Shown here: in pieces, positions 251 through 24,371 of the stretch
How the letters are laid out: each line of letters starts with the position of its first letter
Position numbering within the stretch: position 1 is the stretch's first letter
Origin: Promethearchaeia archaeon
Lineage (GTDB): Archaea > Asgardarchaeota > Lokiarchaeia > Sigyniarchaeales > SOKP01
NCBI GenBank assembly: GCA_046497275.1
Contig: JAWOFX010000064.1
Span: 12,447-44,446, forward strand
Direction of reading: 5' to 3'
Length of the DNA stretch: 32,000 bases
Translations under genes and position numbers: made by a program
Notes under the pieces: model-generated
What the model saw: only the letters and a program-made list of their open reading frames with translations
Databases searched by the model: none
What the model was told of the DNA's origin: nothing

Positions 251-327
251 TGGTGCGGGGAGGGGGCTTCGATCCCCCGACCTCACGGTTATCAGCCGTG
301 CGCTATACCAAGCTAAGCCATCTCCGC
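251..327 (-). tRNA. tRNA-Ile(GAT), CCA encoded
   Basis: Reverse complement gives a 77-nt cloverleaf: 5' GCGGAGA, D arm, anticodon arm CACGG-CT GAT AA-CCGTG, T arm GGGGG-ATCGAAG-CCCCC, 3' ACCA. Confidence 0.97.
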
Positions 328-12180: not shown

Positions 12181-12798
12181 GTGCTACAGAAAAATTCTTC
12201 AGATAAAAATTATAGGTTCTATTTGGGTTTAATTTTAATCTTATTGATAATATTTCTACCTTTTTTAATATTTAAAAAATCATTATTTGTAATTTCAATC
12301 AATTCTATGAGTCCTACATTGAATATTGGTGATTTAGTTATTGTGTCTCCAAAAGATCCAGATAATATTTTTGCAGAAGAAAATTCAGGTAATATTTTAG
12401 TTATAAAGGGACCAGAATATTATTATAAAATGGGATTTGATCCATCTTTTTGGAATTTCCTTGATAATAATACTCCCATTATCCATAGAGCTATAGATAA
12501 AAGAAAAATAAATGAAACTTGGTACTTTTTAACTAAAGGTGATAATAATAAAGCACCTGATGGATCTTATTCTTATATAAATAAATCTGAGGATTATCTT
12601 TTAATCGAACTTAATTATTCAAATGGAATATTCATACCAGAAAATGAAATATTAGGAATAGTATTGTTTAAAATTCCTTTAATTGGATTCTTAAATCTAT
12701 ATTTCTTGCCTTTAAGTATATTGCTGAGTATATTTTTTTTAATATATTTAATATTTAAATTCAATAAGATTAAAATAAAAATCATCAAGGAGAGATAG
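12181..12798 (+). CDS. Signal peptidase I, Sec11-type (S26B)
   Basis: SMSPTLNIGDLV, PIIHRAI and TKGDNN motifs; N- and C-terminal TM helices. Confidence 0.9.
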   Translation: MLQKNSSDKNYRFYLGLILILLIIFLPFLIFKKSLFVISINSMSPTLNIGDLVIVSPKDPDNIFAEENSGNILVIKGPEYYYKMGFDPSFWNFLDNNTPIIHRAIDKRKINETWYFLTKGDNNKAPDGSYSYINKSEDYLLIELNYSNGIFIPENEILGIVLFKIPLIGFLNLYFLPLSILLSIFFLIYLIFKFNKIKIKIIKER

Positions 12799-16193: not shown

Positions 16194-18335
16194 ATGATTC
16201 CAAAATCTAAAAAAACTACGAAAAGGCGAATTTCAGAACTTATTTCTTTAAATAATAAAGTTTTAAATATCTTTTGTGACAAATGTCCAAAAATAACAGA
16301 GACTTTTCTTAATGATAATTGCATTAACTGCATTTTCGAAAACTATAATAAATTTCAAAAAAAAGAAATAAAATCTATTTATTTGAATTCTTTTGATTTT
16401 TTAATAGATCGTGAGATTATAATATATTTTGAAAATTATAAAATTCTCATAAATGAGTTAAAAAGTATATTAAAGAATTTATTAAATTTTAAAACTCAGT
16501 GCAATTATAAGGATTTCAAGTGTAATATATTCATTGGATTGGAATCTCTTCTAAAAATGATAAAAAACATTCATAATCCAATTATTGTTTATAAGGAAAT
16601 TATTAAATATGAATCTGAAATCAATCATCTTGAGATTAAGAATTATTGTAAGGAATGCTTTCAAAAAATTAAAACTAATATTAGTTTGATTAAGAAAAAA
16701 ATAGCAAAATTAGAAGTAATTAAAAAATATAAGAATTACAGTTTGAAAAAGGATCTTTATGCAGAATGCAATAATTTTTATGATTTTTTATTCACTAAAT
16801 TGGTTAAATCGACAGATATCAAATCAAAAAAATCGGTAAAAGATGTAAATAAAAAATTAATTCAAAACTATAAAATTCAAAAATATGGCATTTACAAAAT
16901 TTTTATTTATGAACTTGAAAATGAAATCGAAAAAAGATATGTTTATAAAAAATATTACAAAGAAACAATAAATCAAGATTACTTCAATAAAATCTTAATT
17001 TATACATATGAAAATTTAGAGTTAATAAGGTTGAATCAAATCGTATCTATTGAAAATTTAATAAATTCATACTATTTTAAAGCGATAAAAAAAATCGATG
17101 AAAAATTTAAGATTTCGAATAATGATAAAAAAAAGATAGCCTTATTAGTTGCGATAAAGATTCTAAACCTCAATAAGATCTTTGCTCTGCTATTAGACGA
17201 TTATATAGAGGAAATCTTTCTAGACTCTCCCTATGATAAAATATATATAAATCATAAAATCTTTGGGAGATGCAGAACATTAATAGATTTTACTGGAAAT
17301 GAAATTGAAAGAATTAAAACATTTCTTAGATTATATAGTGGGAAGAGACTTGATTATTCTAATCCAAACATAAAATTTGTGCTTAGCAATAAATTTTTTT
17401 ATTGTAGATTTGCTTGTGATATTGCACCCATAAATTTTAATAATTTTTCACTTGACATAAGAAAATTAAACAAAAACATTTTTACAATCCAAGATCTTTT
17501 ATGTAACAAGACACTTAGTCCTAAAATTGCCTCTTTTCTCTATTATTGTATATTAAAAAAAATAAACATAACTGTTACGGGGAAAACGGACTCAGGTAAA
17601 ACCACACTAATAAATTCTTTAGATTTATTAACACCGAAAGAATTTAGGAAAATATATATCGAAAATGCAATCGAATCTCTTGATCAATATCATCTTGGAA
17701 AACATCAATTAAAATTTGAGGTTGACAGCTTATCTGAAGAAAATGATATAAATAAAAAGAAAAGTGGTCAAATTAAAAAATTATTGCATAGAACACCAGA
17801 TATAATTTATTTGGGAGAGATTTTAACTCAAGAAGAATGTCATGCTATGTTTCATTGTTTAACAGTCGGATTAAAAGGATTTCAAACCATTCATTCTAAT
17901 GGTATAGACTCATTAATTAATAGGTTTCTTTTTCATTTTCAGGTTGAAAAAGAATGTTTAAATGATTTAGATATAATCATTCTTATGGGGAAAGATAATA
18001 ATAATCGGCGGAAAATATTATCAATCAATCAAGTTTATATCCTTGATAATAAAATTATCAATCAACCAATATTTCGTTATAATTCAGAATCTGATTCTTG
18101 GATTCAGTTAAAATCATTGTTTAATTTAAAATGTGTTGAGAAAGTTAATGAATTTGAAAATATTAGTAAAGAAAATTTCGATTTTTTTATAAAAACTTAT
18201 GAAGATTTCTTTGAACATTTGAAAAAAAGTGAAAAGAGACTAGTATTTAATCTTGTAAAATTTTTTGATAAAATTTCCTTTCTATCAAAATTAGGGTTAA
18301 AAAATTTGGCCAATTTTAGAGATTCTATAATATAA
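16194..18335 (+). CDS. Type II/IV secretion/pilus ATPase (TadA/PilB/VirB11 family) with Cys-rich N-terminal extension
   Basis: Walker A GKTDSGKTT, Asp-box-like IENAIE, Walker B RTPDIIYLGE, His box TIHSN, and DDYIEEIFLD. Confidence 0.9.
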   Translation: MIPKSKKTTKRRISELISLNNKVLNIFCDKCPKITETFLNDNCINCIFENYNKFQKKEIKSIYLNSFDFLIDREIIIYFENYKILINELKSILKNLLNFKTQCNYKDFKCNIFIGLESLLKMIKNIHNPIIVYKEIIKYESEINHLEIKNYCKECFQKIKTNISLIKKKIAKLEVIKKYKNYSLKKDLYAECNNFYDFLFTKLVKSTDIKSKKSVKDVNKKLIQNYKIQKYGIYKIFIYELENEIEKRYVYKKYYKETINQDYFNKILIYTYENLELIRLNQIVSIENLINSYYFKAIKKIDEKFKISNNDKKKIALLVAIKILNLNKIFALLLDDYIEEIFLDSPYDKIYINHKIFGRCRTLIDFTGNEIERIKTFLRLYSGKRLDYSNPNIKFVLSNKFFYCRFACDIAPINFNNFSLDIRKLNKNIFTIQDLLCNKTLSPKIASFLYYCILKKINITVTGKTDSGKTTLINSLDLLTPKEFRKIYIENAIESLDQYHLGKHQLKFEVDSLSEENDINKKKSGQIKKLLHRTPDIIYLGEILTQEECHAMFHCLTVGLKGFQTIHSNGIDSLINRFLFHFQVEKECLNDLDIIILMGKDNNNRRKILSINQVYILDNKIINQPIFRYNSESDSWIQLKSLFNLKCVEKVNEFENISKENFDFFIKTYEDFFEHLKKSEKRLVFNLVKFFDKISFLSKLGLKNLANFRDSII

Positions 18336-18387
18336 GCTTAAACCAAAAAATTGAGTAATTTAAAACTATAGAATTAAAAAGATATTT

Positions 18388-18798
18388 GTGACTAATTTAA
18401 TAGAAAAAATATTAATTACAGGATTTGGGATCTTATTGCTAATCTCATTTCTGACAATAATTAATCCATTTATTGATCTTTTTGCTAGATATGATTTTTA
18501 TCAAGAAAAATATGAAAAAACAATCGATAATATAAATTTAATAGACTCATCAATTAGGTATTCTATTAACCAAAATAGGAATTACTGCCAGGAAATATCT
18601 ATTTATCAGGATCTAAACGTTTCTATTGAAAAAATTCAGATAAAGTATGAATTTTTCATTAATAAAATAGATAATCTAGTTTTAACCTATGATAGAAAGA
18701 TGATTGATGGATTCTATTTATTACATTCTCAGAGCAATTACCTACTTAATATTACTTTTTTAACTTCCATATTAATAAAATTCCAAATTTTGGAATGA
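18388..18798 (+). CDS. Single-pass membrane protein, candidate minor pilin
   Basis: GTG start; MTNLIEK followed by a hydrophobic helix; lies between the ATPase and platform genes. Confidence 0.7.
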   Translation: MTNLIEKILITGFGILLLISFLTIINPFIDLFARYDFYQEKYEKTIDNINLIDSSIRYSINQNRNYCQEISIYQDLNVSIEKIQIKYEFFINKIDNLVLTYDRKMIDGFYLLHSQSNYLLNITFLTSILIKFQILE

Positions 18799-18802
18799 TC
18801 CT

Positions 18803-20329
18803 ATGAAATTTCTCGATTTTTATTTGTATATATGTAAATTATGCAGCCACAGGAAGATCCCACAAATTAAATTTAAGGAAAAAGAAGATCTATTTAATAA
18901 AATATTTAAATTATCTTACGGAATCGATAATAAAGAAATAAATAAAGCTTCTTTTTTAATTTTTGTTTTAACATTACTTCTAATAATTTCCTCAGCTATT
19001 TTAATAAATTTTAATTTTTATTTATTACTTTTTTTTTCTCTAATTCTCTCTCTTATCATATCTTATAAATTTAATTTTTATCTTTATAACAAACTTTTAA
19101 AGAGAGGTAAAGAATTAACTTCCTCTCTCTATATTATTAAAATCGATTACTCATTAATTCAGATAACAAAAAATAAATATGAAGACACGATTTTGGAATT
19201 TATTACATTAATAATATCTTATAATCTTCCTATTTCTAAGAAATTTGAAGAAATATTATCTAACATTCATTCTGGCAGCCCTCCTGATATGGAACTCAAG
19301 AAACTTCTTTCTCCCTCTATTGATTTTAATAATTTTAAAAATAATATCATTATACAAAAAGATCATCCTATCTTAGAAAAAAAAGAATTTAAAAATAGCA
19401 AACTTGAGGATGATTTTAAGGTTTATCTAAGAGAATTGAATACTAAGATTAGTATAATTTTCTTCATTGGAATATTTTATCCAATTGGATTATGTTTCCT
19501 TGTAACTTTTATTAGCTTTAATCAGTTAATACTAATAGCATCTGTACCCCTTTTCCTTTTACTTTTAAATTATCTATTTCGAAAATTTATCGCCATCGAT
19601 CATTATTTAATGGGATTAATTAAAAATAATAAAAAATCAGAAAAAACAGAATTTAATGAAATATTAAGTTTAATAAAAAGCTTCTCCTATTATTTGGAAA
19701 ACAATTTATCGCCGGAAAGGGCATTTTTGAAAGCATATCTTGATAAAAACGAGCATATTTTAATCTTAGAAAGAAGAGTCCCTGAAATCCAATTATTTTT
19801 AAATGGATCCTTACAATTTATCGAATTGATGAATATTTTCAGTAAAAAAATGAGTTCTTATAGATTTAAGATAATTTTCAATTCTATATCTAAAATGGTT
19901 AAAGAAAATTCAAAAATGAGTTCGGAAAAAATTAAAGATATACTAAAAGTTTTGAATAAACATCTAAAACTTGAAAAGAAAATAACAATGAAAATTAAAG
20001 CAGAAAGCATTAAAGTTTATATCTTCATTTTTATACTCCCGATTATATTAGGAACACTTGGAGCTCTAATGAGCTTCCTACCTTATATAATGATTGATCT
20101 TTTAGAAATTAATGAAATTAATGAAATTTTATATCTTAATCTTAATTTTAGGTTTTACGATCTTTTAATCTTCTTACTGATTTTATTATCGAGCAATTTT
20201 ATCTCCACTTATTATTTTTTAGCTACTATCTCATTAAAAAATAAGAAATTATTATTAATTATAGGAGAAATTTTACTAATTATATGCTTTTTAATTTCAA
20301 TTACTAATATTCTCCCTCTAATCGGATAA
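18803..20329 (+). CDS. TadB/TadC (PilC/GspF-like) membrane platform protein, duplicated halves
   Basis: Two TM-cytoplasmic-TM modules (ILSNIHSGSPPDMELKKL; SYYLENNLSPERAF) downstream of the secretion ATPase. Confidence 0.75.
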   Translation: MKFLDFYLYICKLCSHRKIPQIKFKEKEDLFNKIFKLSYGIDNKEINKASFLIFVLTLLLIISSAILINFNFYLLLFFSLILSLIISYKFNFYLYNKLLKRGKELTSSLYIIKIDYSLIQITKNKYEDTILEFITLIISYNLPISKKFEEILSNIHSGSPPDMELKKLLSPSIDFNNFKNNIIIQKDHPILEKKEFKNSKLEDDFKVYLRELNTKISIIFFIGIFYPIGLCFLVTFISFNQLILIASVPLFLLLLNYLFRKFIAIDHYLMGLIKNNKKSEKTEFNEILSLIKSFSYYLENNLSPERAFLKAYLDKNEHILILERRVPEIQLFLNGSLQFIELMNIFSKKMSSYRFKIIFNSISKMVKENSKMSSEKIKDILKVLNKHLKLEKKITMKIKAESIKVYIFIFILPIILGTLGALMSFLPYIMIDLLEINEINEILYLNLNFRFYDLLIFLLILLSSNFISTYYFLATISLKNKKLLLIIGEILLIICFLISITNILPLIG

Positions 20330-21860: not shown

Positions 21861-22166
21861 TTATAATAATCTTTCAAGAAATAAATCTTGGATAAAATTG
21901 GTCAAAGATTCATCTTCTATTATTTTATTTAAGATAATATTTAAATCTCTTAATTTTAGATTAGGTAATATCTTATTCAATATATCTTTAATATCGTCAT
22001 CTTCTTCGATATCTTTTATTGAATCATTTTTCTTTATTAATGAACTGATTTCTTTATCTCTTAATATCTTTTTGAATTTTTCAAAGATAAGATTAATCTC
22101 ATTTGATTCTAATTCTAAATTTTCAAAAAATTCTAATGATCTATTAATATCTTCTTTTCTTATCAT
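21861..22166 (-). CDS. Hypothetical helical protein
   Basis: 101-aa ORF with E/K/I-rich composition; follows the peptidase gene on the same strand. Confidence 0.7.
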   Translation of the reverse strand: MIRKEDINRSLEFFENLELESNEINLIFEKFKKILRDKEISSLIKKNDSIKDIEEDDDIKDILNKILPNLKLRDLNIILNKIIEDESLTNFIQDLFLERLL

Positions 22167-22214
22167 TTTAATTAACAGTTTAAATAATTTATTTGTAGTT
22201 TAATCTACTTTTAA

Positions 22215-22877
22215 TTATTTAAATCCCAATAAAATTAAAAAAGTAATAAATGAGAAAGAAATTACTAATATTAATGGAATTCGATCCAATATAAAAATTT
22301 GGAGTTTAATATCATTAAAATTAAAAACAATGTTATTATAGATAATTTTTCTCCTTTTATTATCAGATATTTTTAAATCCGATAAATTTTTTAATCCATA
22401 AGAGCTTAGGAAAAATATTTTTTGCAAGATTGAATTTCGCTTAATTTCGGGTAATATGAAATTAAATAATATATATTTTTTACTGATTCTATTCCCAAAT
22501 AATTTTAATAAATGATATAAATTGAAATAGAACGAAAATATAAAAAAGAACAAAAATATGCTTAGAAGGTTTAAATTAGATGAATTTAACATTATAAATG
22601 AAATAAGGATTACTTTACCATCTCCCCCACCTATAATCTTTAAACAATAGAATAAAAAAATTATTGAAAAGAAAATAAAGAAAATTATTGTTTTTATTAG
22701 AAAAAATTTTAAAATATCCAAATAGCAATATTTAAATTCAAAAAAATTATTTAAAATCATAAAAAAAAAGAATAATTTAAAAAAATTAGGACTTAAGTAG
22801 CGTTTCTTCAAATCTAAATAAGAAAAGATGGAAAGAAAACCTATTATTGAAAAATAATTAAATAAAATAAAGCAAAT
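22215..22877 (-). CDS. Prepilin peptidase (A24 family), N-terminus extended to a putative ATT start
   Basis: GGGDGK motif and C-terminal RIPLILVI. The in-frame upstream extension supplies TM1 and the first catalytic Asp (SYLDLKKRYLSPN). Confidence 0.85.
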   Translation of the reverse strand: MCFILFNYFSIIGFLSIFSYLDLKKRYLSPNFFKLFFFFMILNNFFEFKYCYLDILKFFLIKTIIFFIFFSIIFLFYCLKIIGGGDGKVILISFIMLNSSNLNLLSIFLFFFIFSFYFNLYHLLKLFGNRISKKYILFNFILPEIKRNSILQKIFFLSSYGLKNLSDLKISDNKRRKIIYNNIVFNFNDIKLQIFILDRIPLILVISFSFITFLILLGFK

Positions 22878-22878
22878 C

Positions 22879-23169
22879 TTACTTTTCCTCCCAAATTTTT
22901 AAAAAATTTTTAAAACTTCTTGCTTTTATATTTTCCTCTTTAAAACGGTAAATCCGAATGCGTCCAAAATTTTTTTGTTGTACAAGATCAACTTTTTTAA
23001 GATATTTTAAATGTTTATCAACATTTTTATGATTTAGATTTGTTTTTTTGATTATAGCGGATATATTAAGTTCTGTTTTGAAAGCTAAAAGCTTTAATAT
23101 TTTAACTCTCGCACGAGATCCTAATAAATTTTCAATTAATTTTCCATTTTTAAGTTTCTCTTCATTCAT
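22879..23169 (-). CDS. ArsR-like winged-helix protein
   Basis: LGSRARVKILKLL...LNISAI...HLKYLKKVDLV...GRIRIY; ATGA overlap with the cdc6 stop. Confidence 0.85.
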   Translation of the reverse strand: MNEEKLKNGKLIENLLGSRARVKILKLLAFKTELNISAIIKKTNLNHKNVDKHLKYLKKVDLVQQKNFGRIRIYRFKEENIKARSFKNFLKIWEEK

Positions 23170-24371
23170 AAAGCTATCTCACTCTCCTTCAACTTATTTA
23201 AGATTTGAATCTCAAGCTTTTTTAAAGGCATTTCTTGTATTTTTATAAGGGATTTCCTTCCCGAAATATTTTTACTCTTTATTGAGACTGTAATTATACC
23301 ATCTCTGTTGAAATCATTGAGATAATTCCATATTTGAGAATAAGATTTAGGTTTTTTATTTGCGTTCTCACATATTAAGTAATATTCATTAATTATGTTT
23401 GAGACACTGACTGCCACTTTGTTGGAATTTTTTAATGTTCGTAAAATCGATAATAAAAATAGAGATTTATTCAAATTCATATATTTAAGAATATCATTAA
23501 CCGAATAAGGAACAATTTCTTGATTTGCTAATCTAATTATCTCAGGGGTTAGAAACCGAAGATCTTTACTCTCTGCTATTTTACATGATTTCCATAATAT
23601 ATTAAGACCGTAGCGTATATCTCCTTTTTCAAATACAATTTCAGCCAAACTTTTTAAAATCTCGTCAGAAATCACATCCTTTTTCAAACTCAAAGAGGAT
23701 CTATATTTAAGTATATGTTTTATTTGATCTTTTGAATATGTATCAAATTTTATTATGTTTCTTTGTAAAGTACTCAATGTACTATTATCTAAATTATTTA
23801 GAAAGGAAATATCTCTAACTATTCCAATAAGAGATAGTCTCTGAGGACTATTATATGAATCGTCATACATTCTAGTTAGGGAGTAAATCAAATCCTCCTC
23901 CTTGTTTATTAGATAATTTAATTCATCAAGAACTAATATAATATGCAAATTCTGATTGTGAACTACTTTTTTTATTATTTCTAAAAGATCTTGTGGAGAA
24001 TATCCTCTTTTTGGAAAATCTTTTTTTAATTGTCCGATAATACTAATTAAAACTTTATAGCTGGTTCTCTCTTTCCTACAATTAATATGGATATATTTAA
24101 TATTAATTTCTCTTTTAAACGCAGCCTCTATTATTATATTCCCGAATTGCCTAACCGTTGCTGTTTTACCAATTCCCGTTTTTCCGGTTATTAGTAATTT
24201 TCTTGATATCGAATTTGGTTGGGTTATTAATGAGGAGAAAAGTTGCGATAATAAAGATAATTCTTTTTCTCTATGTGGTAATCTTTCAGGAATGTAATTT
24301 ATATCTAATTTATATTCTGCTTTAAATAAGCTTGGTTTTCCTAACAGTTTTTCAAAATAATTGTAAGACAT
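23166..24371 (-). CDS. cdc6: Cdc6/Orc1 replication initiator
   Basis: YIPERLPHRE, Walker A GKTGIGKT, Walker B LVLDE, GDIR sensor and a C-terminal winged helix. Confidence 0.95.
   Translation of the reverse strand: MSYNYFEKLLGKPSLFKAEYKLDINYIPERLPHREKELSLLSQLFSSLITQPNSISRKLLITGKTGIGKTATVRQFGNIIIEAAFKREINIKYIHINCRKERTSYKVLISIIGQLKKDFPKRGYSPQDLLEIIKKVVHNQNLHIILVLDELNYLINKEEDLIYSLTRMYDDSYNSPQRLSLIGIVRDISFLNNLDNSTLSTLQRNIIKFDTYSKDQIKHILKYRSSLSLKKDVISDEILKSLAEIVFEKGDIRYGLNILWKSCKIAESKDLRFLTPEIIRLANQEIVPYSVNDILKYMNLNKSLFLLSILRTLKNSNKVAVSVSNIINEYYLICENANKKPKSYSQIWNYLNDFNRDGIITVSIKSKNISGRKSLIKIQEMPLKKLEIQILNKLKESEIAL

Follow-up and report, generated by a model that had tools for sequence, protein, structure and literature searches.

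A predicted FlaK/PibD-type signal peptidase with a probable AUU start codon in a Promethearchaeota genome, and candidate AUU starts across its family

A gene on the minus strand of the window (the whole 32,000-nucleotide stretch of DNA that was analysed) is predicted to encode a functional 220-residue aspartyl signal peptidase of the FlaK/PibD type (A24, GxGD), translated from the AUU codon at 22877-22875. We give this reading, which rests on sequence comparison, a probability of roughly 0.7. AUU probably serves routinely as a start codon throughout a Promethearchaeota family. In this genome, it would be the third commonest start led by a Shine-Dalgarno (SD) motif, ahead of GUG, and in the family it would alternate with AUG at homologous sites and cause annotated proteins to be truncated. 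The putative family-wide use of ATT is the more novel part of these results, compared with the peptidase gene. Together with the genome and family data, the peptidase case supports the view that archaea can use AUU regularly to start translation.

The peptidase gene, its cluster and its family

The window belongs to a MAG of 3.85 Mb that is 98.9% complete and has an overall GC content of 30%; the GC content of the window is about 22-31%. The records of relatives carry the name Promethearchaeota (Loki-type Asgard archaea), and no closer genomes were found for the genus of the source genome. As shown in Table 1, the peptidase gene is part of four tightly packed minus-strand genes in the order orc1/cdc6, ArsR-type winged-helix regulator (wHTH), peptidase and 101-residue acidic protein. 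The end of orc1/cdc6 and the start of the wHTH gene overlapped by 4 nt (ATGA), while the gap between the peptidase gene and the gene for the acidic protein was 48 nt. The four genes may be co-transcribed. The synteny analysis showed that this cluster was kept in about 20 genomes, and in relatives the wHTH gene was always located directly upstream of the peptidase gene. The association of a signal peptidase with orc1/cdc6 and a wHTH regulator is constant, unexplained and testable.

Table 1. Coordinates of the genes and sequence features in and around the proposed peptidase gene (positions in the window)
Feature	Position	Strand	Evidence or remark
T2SSE ATPase	16194-18335		4.5 kb from the peptidase gene
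Acidic 101-aa protein, conserved, fourth gene of the cluster	21861..22166	-	synteny
Full peptidase CDS as proposed, 220 aa + TAA, third cistron	22215..22877	-	Pfam, AF2, Foldseek
GGGDGK motif; predicted catalytic Asp2 (Asp86) is GAT 22622-22620	22614..22631	-	alignments
TTG, first canonical start, encodes Leu23, apparently miscalled by gene finders	22809..22811	-	TTG-started protein 20.0 bits
GAT, predicted catalytic Asp1 (Asp22), D-x-K-x-R motif	22812..22814	-	invariant in the 12-orthologue alignment; aligned with the FlaK TM1 Asp
Codons 2-21, predicted transmembrane helix 1 (TM1) before Asp1	22815..22874	-	AF2 helix; dN/dS 0.25 vs L020
ATA codons, Asp becomes residue 12 or 11	22847-22842	-	
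Second in-frame ATT, alternative start, Asp becomes residue 19	22866..22868	-	GGAGG then 18 nt away
Proposed ATT (AUU) initiation codon, 1 nt past the wHTH stop	22875..22877	-	conserved in L018, L019 and L020; Asp is residue 22
Stop TAA of the wHTH gene	22881-22879	-	
ArsR-type winged-helix regulator gene, 96 aa, C-terminus ..KIWEEK	22879..23169	-	Pfam HTH_5, 31.8 bits
Shine-Dalgarno core GGAGG inside the wHTH W-E-E codons, 9 nt before the ATT	22887..22891	-	matches the 16S 3' end
In-frame TAA closing the peptidase frame upstream	22899..22901	-	sequence
orc1/cdc6, 401 aa, first gene of the cluster	23166..24371	-	Pfam Cdc6_lid, AAA_22, Cdc6_C

The peptidase frame was open from 22898 to 22218 on the minus strand, which corresponds to 227 codons. 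Re-reading of this strand bore out all of the coordinates of the first-pass annotation. As described there, no ATG, GTG or TTG was located ahead of the TTG at 22811-22809, the frame remained open through a TM helix back to the TAA at 22901-22899, and the GAT immediately before the TTG completed SYL-D-LKKR. The order at the junction on the minus strand was TAA (22881-22879), G (22878) and ATT (22877-22875), and the ATT was indeed 1 nt behind the stop codon of the upstream gene. The hydrophobic helix upstream of Asp1 was ICFILFNYFSIIGFLSIF, with a length of 21 residues if the ATT is the start. An open start-less lead of 29 codons is not rare per se, as it was found in 130 of 2825 long ORFs, and the crude codon-usage score of the peptidase lead was -0.07, which is not clearly coding and is expected for a Phe-rich helix. 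The length of the lead alone is common, yet its homology exceeds chance, because the alignment with PF01478 reaches upstream of the TTG, beginning 12 codons before it.

Every sequence and structure test applied for the A24/GxGD family was positive for the ATT-started protein, as judged from its sequence and its predicted fold. The ATT-started protein scored 30.1 bits against PF01478 and passed the gathering score of 26.5 bits, while the TTG-started protein, at 20.0 bits, failed. This gene was the sole PF01478 match in the whole genome. In the alignment of 12 orthologues, Asp22, Lys24, Arg26 and G84-x-D86-G87-K88 were invariant, and the second Asp motif of relatives was GGGD, GGAD or AGGD. GGGDGK at residues 83-88 aligned with GGGDGK of FlaK, in agreement with a GxGD protease. 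The profile of the 12-orthologue alignment found FlaK (PDB 3S0X) over its full length with E = 0.086, and in this alignment Asp22 was paired with the Asp of the FlaK TM1 motif SVQDFRSREI. FlaK was reached by this profile search; a single-sequence search of the PDB and a search of NCBIfam returned nothing useful. The AF2 model of the ATT-started protein had a pLDDT of 84 and a pTM of 0.81, and residues 2-25 were modelled as a confident helix (pLDDT 86-93). The top Foldseek match was 3s0x_A (FlaK), with a probability of 1.00, a TM score of 0.57 and an E value of 0.017, and the best match from any other entry had an E value of 1.9. Asp22 is covered by the Pfam alignment, by the alignment with FlaK and by the invariant D-x-K-x-R motif, and the earlier claim that the first catalytic Asp lies upstream of every canonical start stands.

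The predicted protein resembles FlaK of Methanococcus maripaludis and PibD/EppA (MEROPS A24B) in being a polytopic membrane protein of about 220 residues, with one Asp at the end of TM1 in D-x-[KR]-x-R, the second in GGGDGK, 64 residues between them and a beta-rich cytoplasmic insert. The likeness extends to the full-length profile alignment and the top structural match, but similarity was low, with an identity of 17% in the structural alignment besides the profile E value given above. The product is predicted to set Asp22 in TM1 opposite Asp86 in GGGDGK, and the enzyme would remove class III signal peptides from pilin-like proteins. It differs from FlaK and PibD in that the gene is located in an orc1/cdc6 and wHTH cluster, not in a fla/pil locus, and in its proposed ATT start.

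Start codon of the peptidase gene

Three contigs from three different JGI metagenomes, which were independently assembled, carried the same cluster (L018, L019 and L020). The amino acid identity of the peptidase was 92% for L018 and L019 and 77% for L020. TAA-G-ATT, the reading frame and Asp1 were kept in all three, no indel was found over 262 aligned columns, and both ATT codons (22877 and 22868) were conserved in all four sequences. The only canonical codon upstream of Asp1 was a TTG, 10 codons before it in L018 and L019 and 1 codon before it in L020. In the comparison with L020, codons 1-21 had a dN/dS of about 0.25, the same as codons 22-220, and the differences in the lead were distributed 2/2/7 over the three codon positions.

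Except for L006, the remaining orthologues with an intact frame had an ATG 19-44 codons before Asp1 (19-30 in all but one) at the same wHTH-peptidase junction. The comparison of orthologues gave ATT in the three close contigs and ATG at the equivalent junction in other orthologues. In L006, which belongs to another genus, there was no canonical start, an ATT was located 22 codons before Asp1, and the gap to the wHTH gene was 95 nt; in the other relatives the two genes overlapped by up to 8 nt or were separated by a few nt. The median position of Asp1 was residue 24 (range 17-54) in 38 family representatives with canonical starts; the one exception was P0001, the TTG-called sister of the peptidase gene, with Asp1 at residue 11. 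A start at ATT 22877 places Asp1 at residue 22, inside the range of 17-31 of the relatives. The G001 orthologue begins with TAA-ATT-TTG and is uninformative on the start.

The distance from GGAGG to ATT 22877 was 9 nt, and 9 nt is also the mode for canonical starts in this genome (range 7-12 nt). The 16S 3' end of the genome was ..GGATCACCTCCT (..CACCUCCU). As the W-E-E codons of the wHTH gene dictate this motif, the GGAGG fits the proposed function but is not independent evidence. Conservation, SD spacing, the position of Asp22 and the habit of the genome point to a non-canonical start, with ATT 22877 as the best candidate, and initiation at this codon is probable. The initiator Met-tRNA would read AUU with a third-position mismatch, and the initiating ribosome would be either a small subunit bound to GGAGG or one that had just terminated on the wHTH gene. 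ARAGORN reported only 26 tRNAs for the genome and no tRNA-Met(CAT).

Initiation may instead take place at another non-canonical codon, that is, the second ATT (22868-22866) or one of the ATA codons (22847-22842), which we regard as possible but doubtful. Both ATT codons are conserved in the four sequences, and a start at the second ATT would place Asp1 at residue 19, still within 17-31. The edges of start-less frames are likewise enriched in ATA (24% vs 10.5% in the control), and in L018 and L019 the place of the second ATA is taken by a canonical TTG, the codon from which gene callers began P0001. With 29.9 bits for the ATA-started protein, the Pfam score by itself does not discriminate between ATT 22877 and the ATT and ATA codons behind it. 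However, GGAGG would be at least 18 nt away from the second ATT or the ATA codons, outside the range of canonical starts. With a start at the ATA or at the TTG of L018 and L019, only 10-11 residues would precede Asp1, not enough for TM1 to span the membrane, and no family representative besides P0001 has fewer than 16 residues there. Codons 1-10 had 0, 5 and 5 differences compared with 3.7, 10.1 and 10.6 expected at the synonymous rate, which for these codons alone is a modest constraint (P about 0.02-0.03 per pair, the pairs not being independent); the downstream intergenic spacer was fairly conserved too. The TTG at 22811 is the first canonical start, and the public gene calls of close relatives (P0002-P0004) are also truncated. 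If it were the real start, the protein would lack TM1 and Asp1 and be inactive or have another role, as the product of a decaying pseudogene. This is improbable, because the 21 upstream codons and Asp1 are under purifying selection at the level of the gene body in lineages with as little as 77% identity, where neither a stop nor an indel was present, and because the TTG-started form is below the Pfam cut-off. A pseudogene is also at odds with this being the only A24 gene of a near-complete genome, and FlaK, PibD and TcpJ critically depend on both aspartates, one in TM1 and one in TM4 (PMC4307647).

Recoding was considered in two forms and is very improbable. A TTG in another frame, in ATT-TGG, followed by a 1-nt shift was rejected, since this codon is CTG in L020, that frame closes after 9-16 codons, and there was no indel among the four sequences. 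A +1 shift at the wHTH stop would give a wHTH-peptidase fusion; the peptidase frame is open across this stop, and several orthologues start at an ATG overlapping the I-W codons of the wHTH gene ('MGE/MGR' starts in L002, L004 and L009), both of which favour recoding. The fusion was rejected because no slippery site is conserved (the last codon ahead of the wHTH stop is not the same, AAG vs ATT), and because a junction that varies between an overlap of 8 nt and a gap of 95 nt in relatives is incompatible with a conserved fusion. The basic KFGRKSK and the wHTH domain ahead of TM1 would also conflict with the positive-inside rule, if the N-terminal end of TM1 faces outward as suggested by analogy with FlaK, the active site of which is cytoplasmic (PMC4307647). 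An assembly or sequencing error might hide an ATG or an indel, as the region is AT-rich with homopolymer runs, and runs of T17 and T13 contain frameshifts in the MAG orthologues L027 and L029. The three independent contigs agree base for base around TAAGATTTG and have no indel over the aligned columns, and the probability of such an error is close to negligible. On these alignments, read error and pseudogene are both unlikely.

ATT 22877 as the start was one part of what the first-pass annotation had proposed; the other was that reinitiation after termination would keep peptidase levels low and coupled to translation of the cdc6 operon. A throttle specific to this gene is not needed as an explanation, because ATT also appears to start many other genes here. 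The peptidase gene is one clean example of a candidate ATT start within a cdc6 operon, and coupling there is putative and drawn from the geometry. The 1-nt stop-start gap, the ATGA overlap of cdc6 and wHTH and the overlaps or gaps of a few nt in relatives are like those of abutting cistrons with termination-reinitiation. However, L006 has a gap of 95 nt and no canonical start, yet its ATT is in the same position relative to Asp1.

Candidate ATT starts in the genome and the family

Start-less leads of at least 20 codons were found in 257 of 2825 long ORFs, and about 40% of these leads were coding-like by the codon-usage score. In 40% of the coding-like leads, at least one of the three codons that follow the in-frame stop was ATT, compared with 15% in the internal control. 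ATA showed the enrichment given above at the same frame edge, and the other tested codons were not clearly enriched. The modal SD spacing before canonical starts was 9 nt for GGAGG and 6 nt for GGTGA. SD motifs with modal spacing near frame edges were found for 94 ATG, 46 TTG, 38 ATT (about 15 expected) and 5 GTG codons. For ATT in long leads, GGTGA had a spacing of 6 nt as for canonical starts, which was not the case for control codons. The enrichment of SD motifs over all lead codons was weak, as only about 9% of starts had an SD motif; a clear signal emerged once only frame edges and the modal spacing were considered.

Ten other ATT candidates were checked against Pfam. In 8 of the 10, the domain began 2-22 residues after the ATT, and the first canonical start came 14-52 residues later. 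The eight supported genes encode XPD, FolE2, PGM, GDPD, DUF6513, Pyr_redox_2, ECH and AsnC; of the other two, TPP_enzyme_C was marginal and CorA was uninformative. By appearance, the ATT of many enzyme genes in this genome follows an AT-rich, intergenic-looking stretch. In the case of folE2, at least 11 of 20 family genomes had ATT at the homologous codon, in most cases preceded by GGTGA or GGTGG at a distance of about 6 nt. In 7 other genomes, one of the canonical starts ATG, GTG and TTG was located at the ATT site or just upstream of it. This gene is a direct example of ATT and ATG replacing each other as the start among relatives. Because many enzyme genes such as folE2 and PGM also appear to use ATT, it looks like a habit of the lineage and not a device of the peptidase gene.

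In public protein sets, the peptidase and its close relatives are N-terminally truncated (P0001-P0004), and three of these four have no Pfam domain; P0003 and P0004, with about 51% identity, are truncated calls as well. Asgard genomes can be scored as having no prepilin peptidase as a result of such annotations, and inferences about pili and archaella would then be distorted. If the reading is correct, ATT starts strip catalytic or cofactor-binding N-termini from the annotations of the peptidase, XPD, FolE2, PGM, GDPD and others.

Known ATT starts and pilus context

The E. coli genes infC (encoding IF3) and pcnB have AUU start codons. In Enterococcus faecalis, the ATT start of ebpA is reported to attenuate pilus expression (PMC4447247). 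The genes infC, pcnB and ebpA are similar to the Asgard peptidase gene in having an essential N-terminal part ahead of any canonical start and an SD motif at normal spacing before the ATT, but each is an isolated case with a regulatory role, and AUU starts are very rare in their genomes, while ATT is predicted to be the third commonest SD-led start in the Asgard genome. There was no evidence for autoregulation of the Asgard peptidase gene.

In a 2020 review of initiation in archaea, the start codons named are AUG, GUG and UUG only, and AUU is not mentioned. For the tubulin AtubA of a Kariarchaeaceae (Asgard) MAG, a revised annotation uses a 'rare ATT start codon' (PMC13394414), and in the literature text that was accessible this gene was the only mention of an Asgard ATT start that was found. 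Like the peptidase, the deposited AtubA protein was N-terminally short, and ATT restored the conserved N-terminus at a plausible distance from the RBS (PMC13394414). AtubA differs in belonging to another Asgard class and in being a single anecdotal case, with no genome-wide or cross-species survey reported in the accessible text of that paper (PMC13394414).

Unlike for FlaK and PibD, no archaellin or Pilin_N was found by Pfam models in the Asgard genome (no match to PF01917 or PF07790), and a regex screen for class III signal peptides gave loose candidates only, with no convincing substrates. The genome encodes two T2SSE ATPases, and one of them is located in the window. It is followed by a 136-aa protein with an N-terminal TM helix and a 508-aa polytopic membrane protein, all within 2-6 kb of the peptidase gene.

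Start codons in the source genome and its relatives

Comparison of the folE2 start site among orthologues from 20 genomes of the family (loci L042-L061) showed that ATT occupies the site in at least 11 of the 20, representing several genera, with GGTGA or GGTGG approximately 6 nt upstream in most. Seven other genomes carried a canonical start (ATG, GTG or TTG) at that site or just upstream. This pattern gives direct evidence that start codons have been exchanged at a homologous site.

In the source genome G000, folE2 was one of eight genes other than the peptidase in which the start of the Pfam domain lies 2-22 residues downstream of an ATT and a long way 5' of any canonical start (listed in the table). 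GGTGA was located approximately 6 nt 5' of the ATT in several of these eight genes.

Genome-wide in G000, ATA was enriched at the 5' edge of coding frames lacking a start (24% vs 10.5%) and slightly enriched together with Shine-Dalgarno (SD) motifs (16 vs about 10 expected), consistent with a possible role as a second non-canonical start codon. GTG with an SD motif was apparently almost unused. ARAGORN identified only 26 tRNAs in the 3.85-Mb assembly and no tRNA-Met(CAT); the missing genes are perhaps intron-containing or unassembled.

Coordinates of the features discussed (all ATT starts are proposed)
Feature	Location	Strand	Remarks
tRNA-Ile(GAT)	window ~251-327	-	ARAGORN
S26-type signal peptidase I-like gene	window 12181-12798	+	Pfam, 26 bits
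Candidate type IV filament assembly locus	window 16194-20329	+	T2SSE ATPase and two membrane-type proteins
orc1/cdc6, ArsR wHTH, A24 peptidase, 101-aa acidic protein	window 21861-24371	-	four-gene cluster
Peptidase orthologue L063	G001:C246; 795-1337 in plus-strand coordinates of the locus	-	same genus
XPD helicase	G000, C41:30797-32782		ATT start; Pfam
folE2	G000, C111:7145-8101		ATT start; Pfam
PGM	G000, C60:32099-33568		ATT start; Pfam
GDPD	G000, C69:4620-5360		ATT start; Pfam
DUF6513/pterin-binding	G000, C111:12625-14193		ATT start; Pfam
Pyr_redox_2	G000, C99:1157-2419		ATT start; Pfam
Enoyl-CoA hydratase	G000, C31:5579-6373		ATT start; Pfam
AsnC regulator	G000, C158:9098-9556		ATT start; Pfam

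The peptidase cluster and its orthologues

The four-gene cluster was kept across about 20 genomes of the family and metagenome contigs (loci L002-L029), and in it a signal peptidase gene is genomically linked to a replication initiator gene. The peptidase evolves far more rapidly than either neighbor, with identity of about 30-40% compared with 55-68% for cdc6 and 60-75% for the wHTH gene.

In the same-genus orthologue L063, an insertion of about 200 nt separates the wHTH gene from the peptidase. Its start reads TAA-ATT-TTG, with the ATT immediately 3' of the in-frame stop and the Asp at residue 22, and the encoded protein is shorter (181 aa).

Frameshifts split the orthologues of two other MAGs, L027 (~2300-2450) and L029 (~2400-2500), within poly-Phe-coding T17 and T13 runs. 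The frameshifts reflect either errors in homopolymer assembly or genuine sites prone to slippage. Two public protein calls of approximately 158-166 aa, P0016 and P0038, start a little upstream of the GxGD motif and may be products of such splits, although the sequence of P0016 matches the L006 lineage, a peptidase lineage of another genus.

Candidate secretion and filament genes near the peptidase

The first product of the T2SSE locus is a 713-aa PilB/FlaI-type ATPase; next come a 136-aa protein that has a TM segment at its N terminus and a polytopic membrane protein of 508 aa without a match in the Pfam search. The locus lies near the peptidase and is a candidate for type IV filament assembly. 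Pfam models for archaellin and Pilin_N had no matches in the whole G000 genome. The S26-type gene lies in the same window as the peptidase, and therefore the neighborhood contains candidate signal peptidases of both type I and type III.
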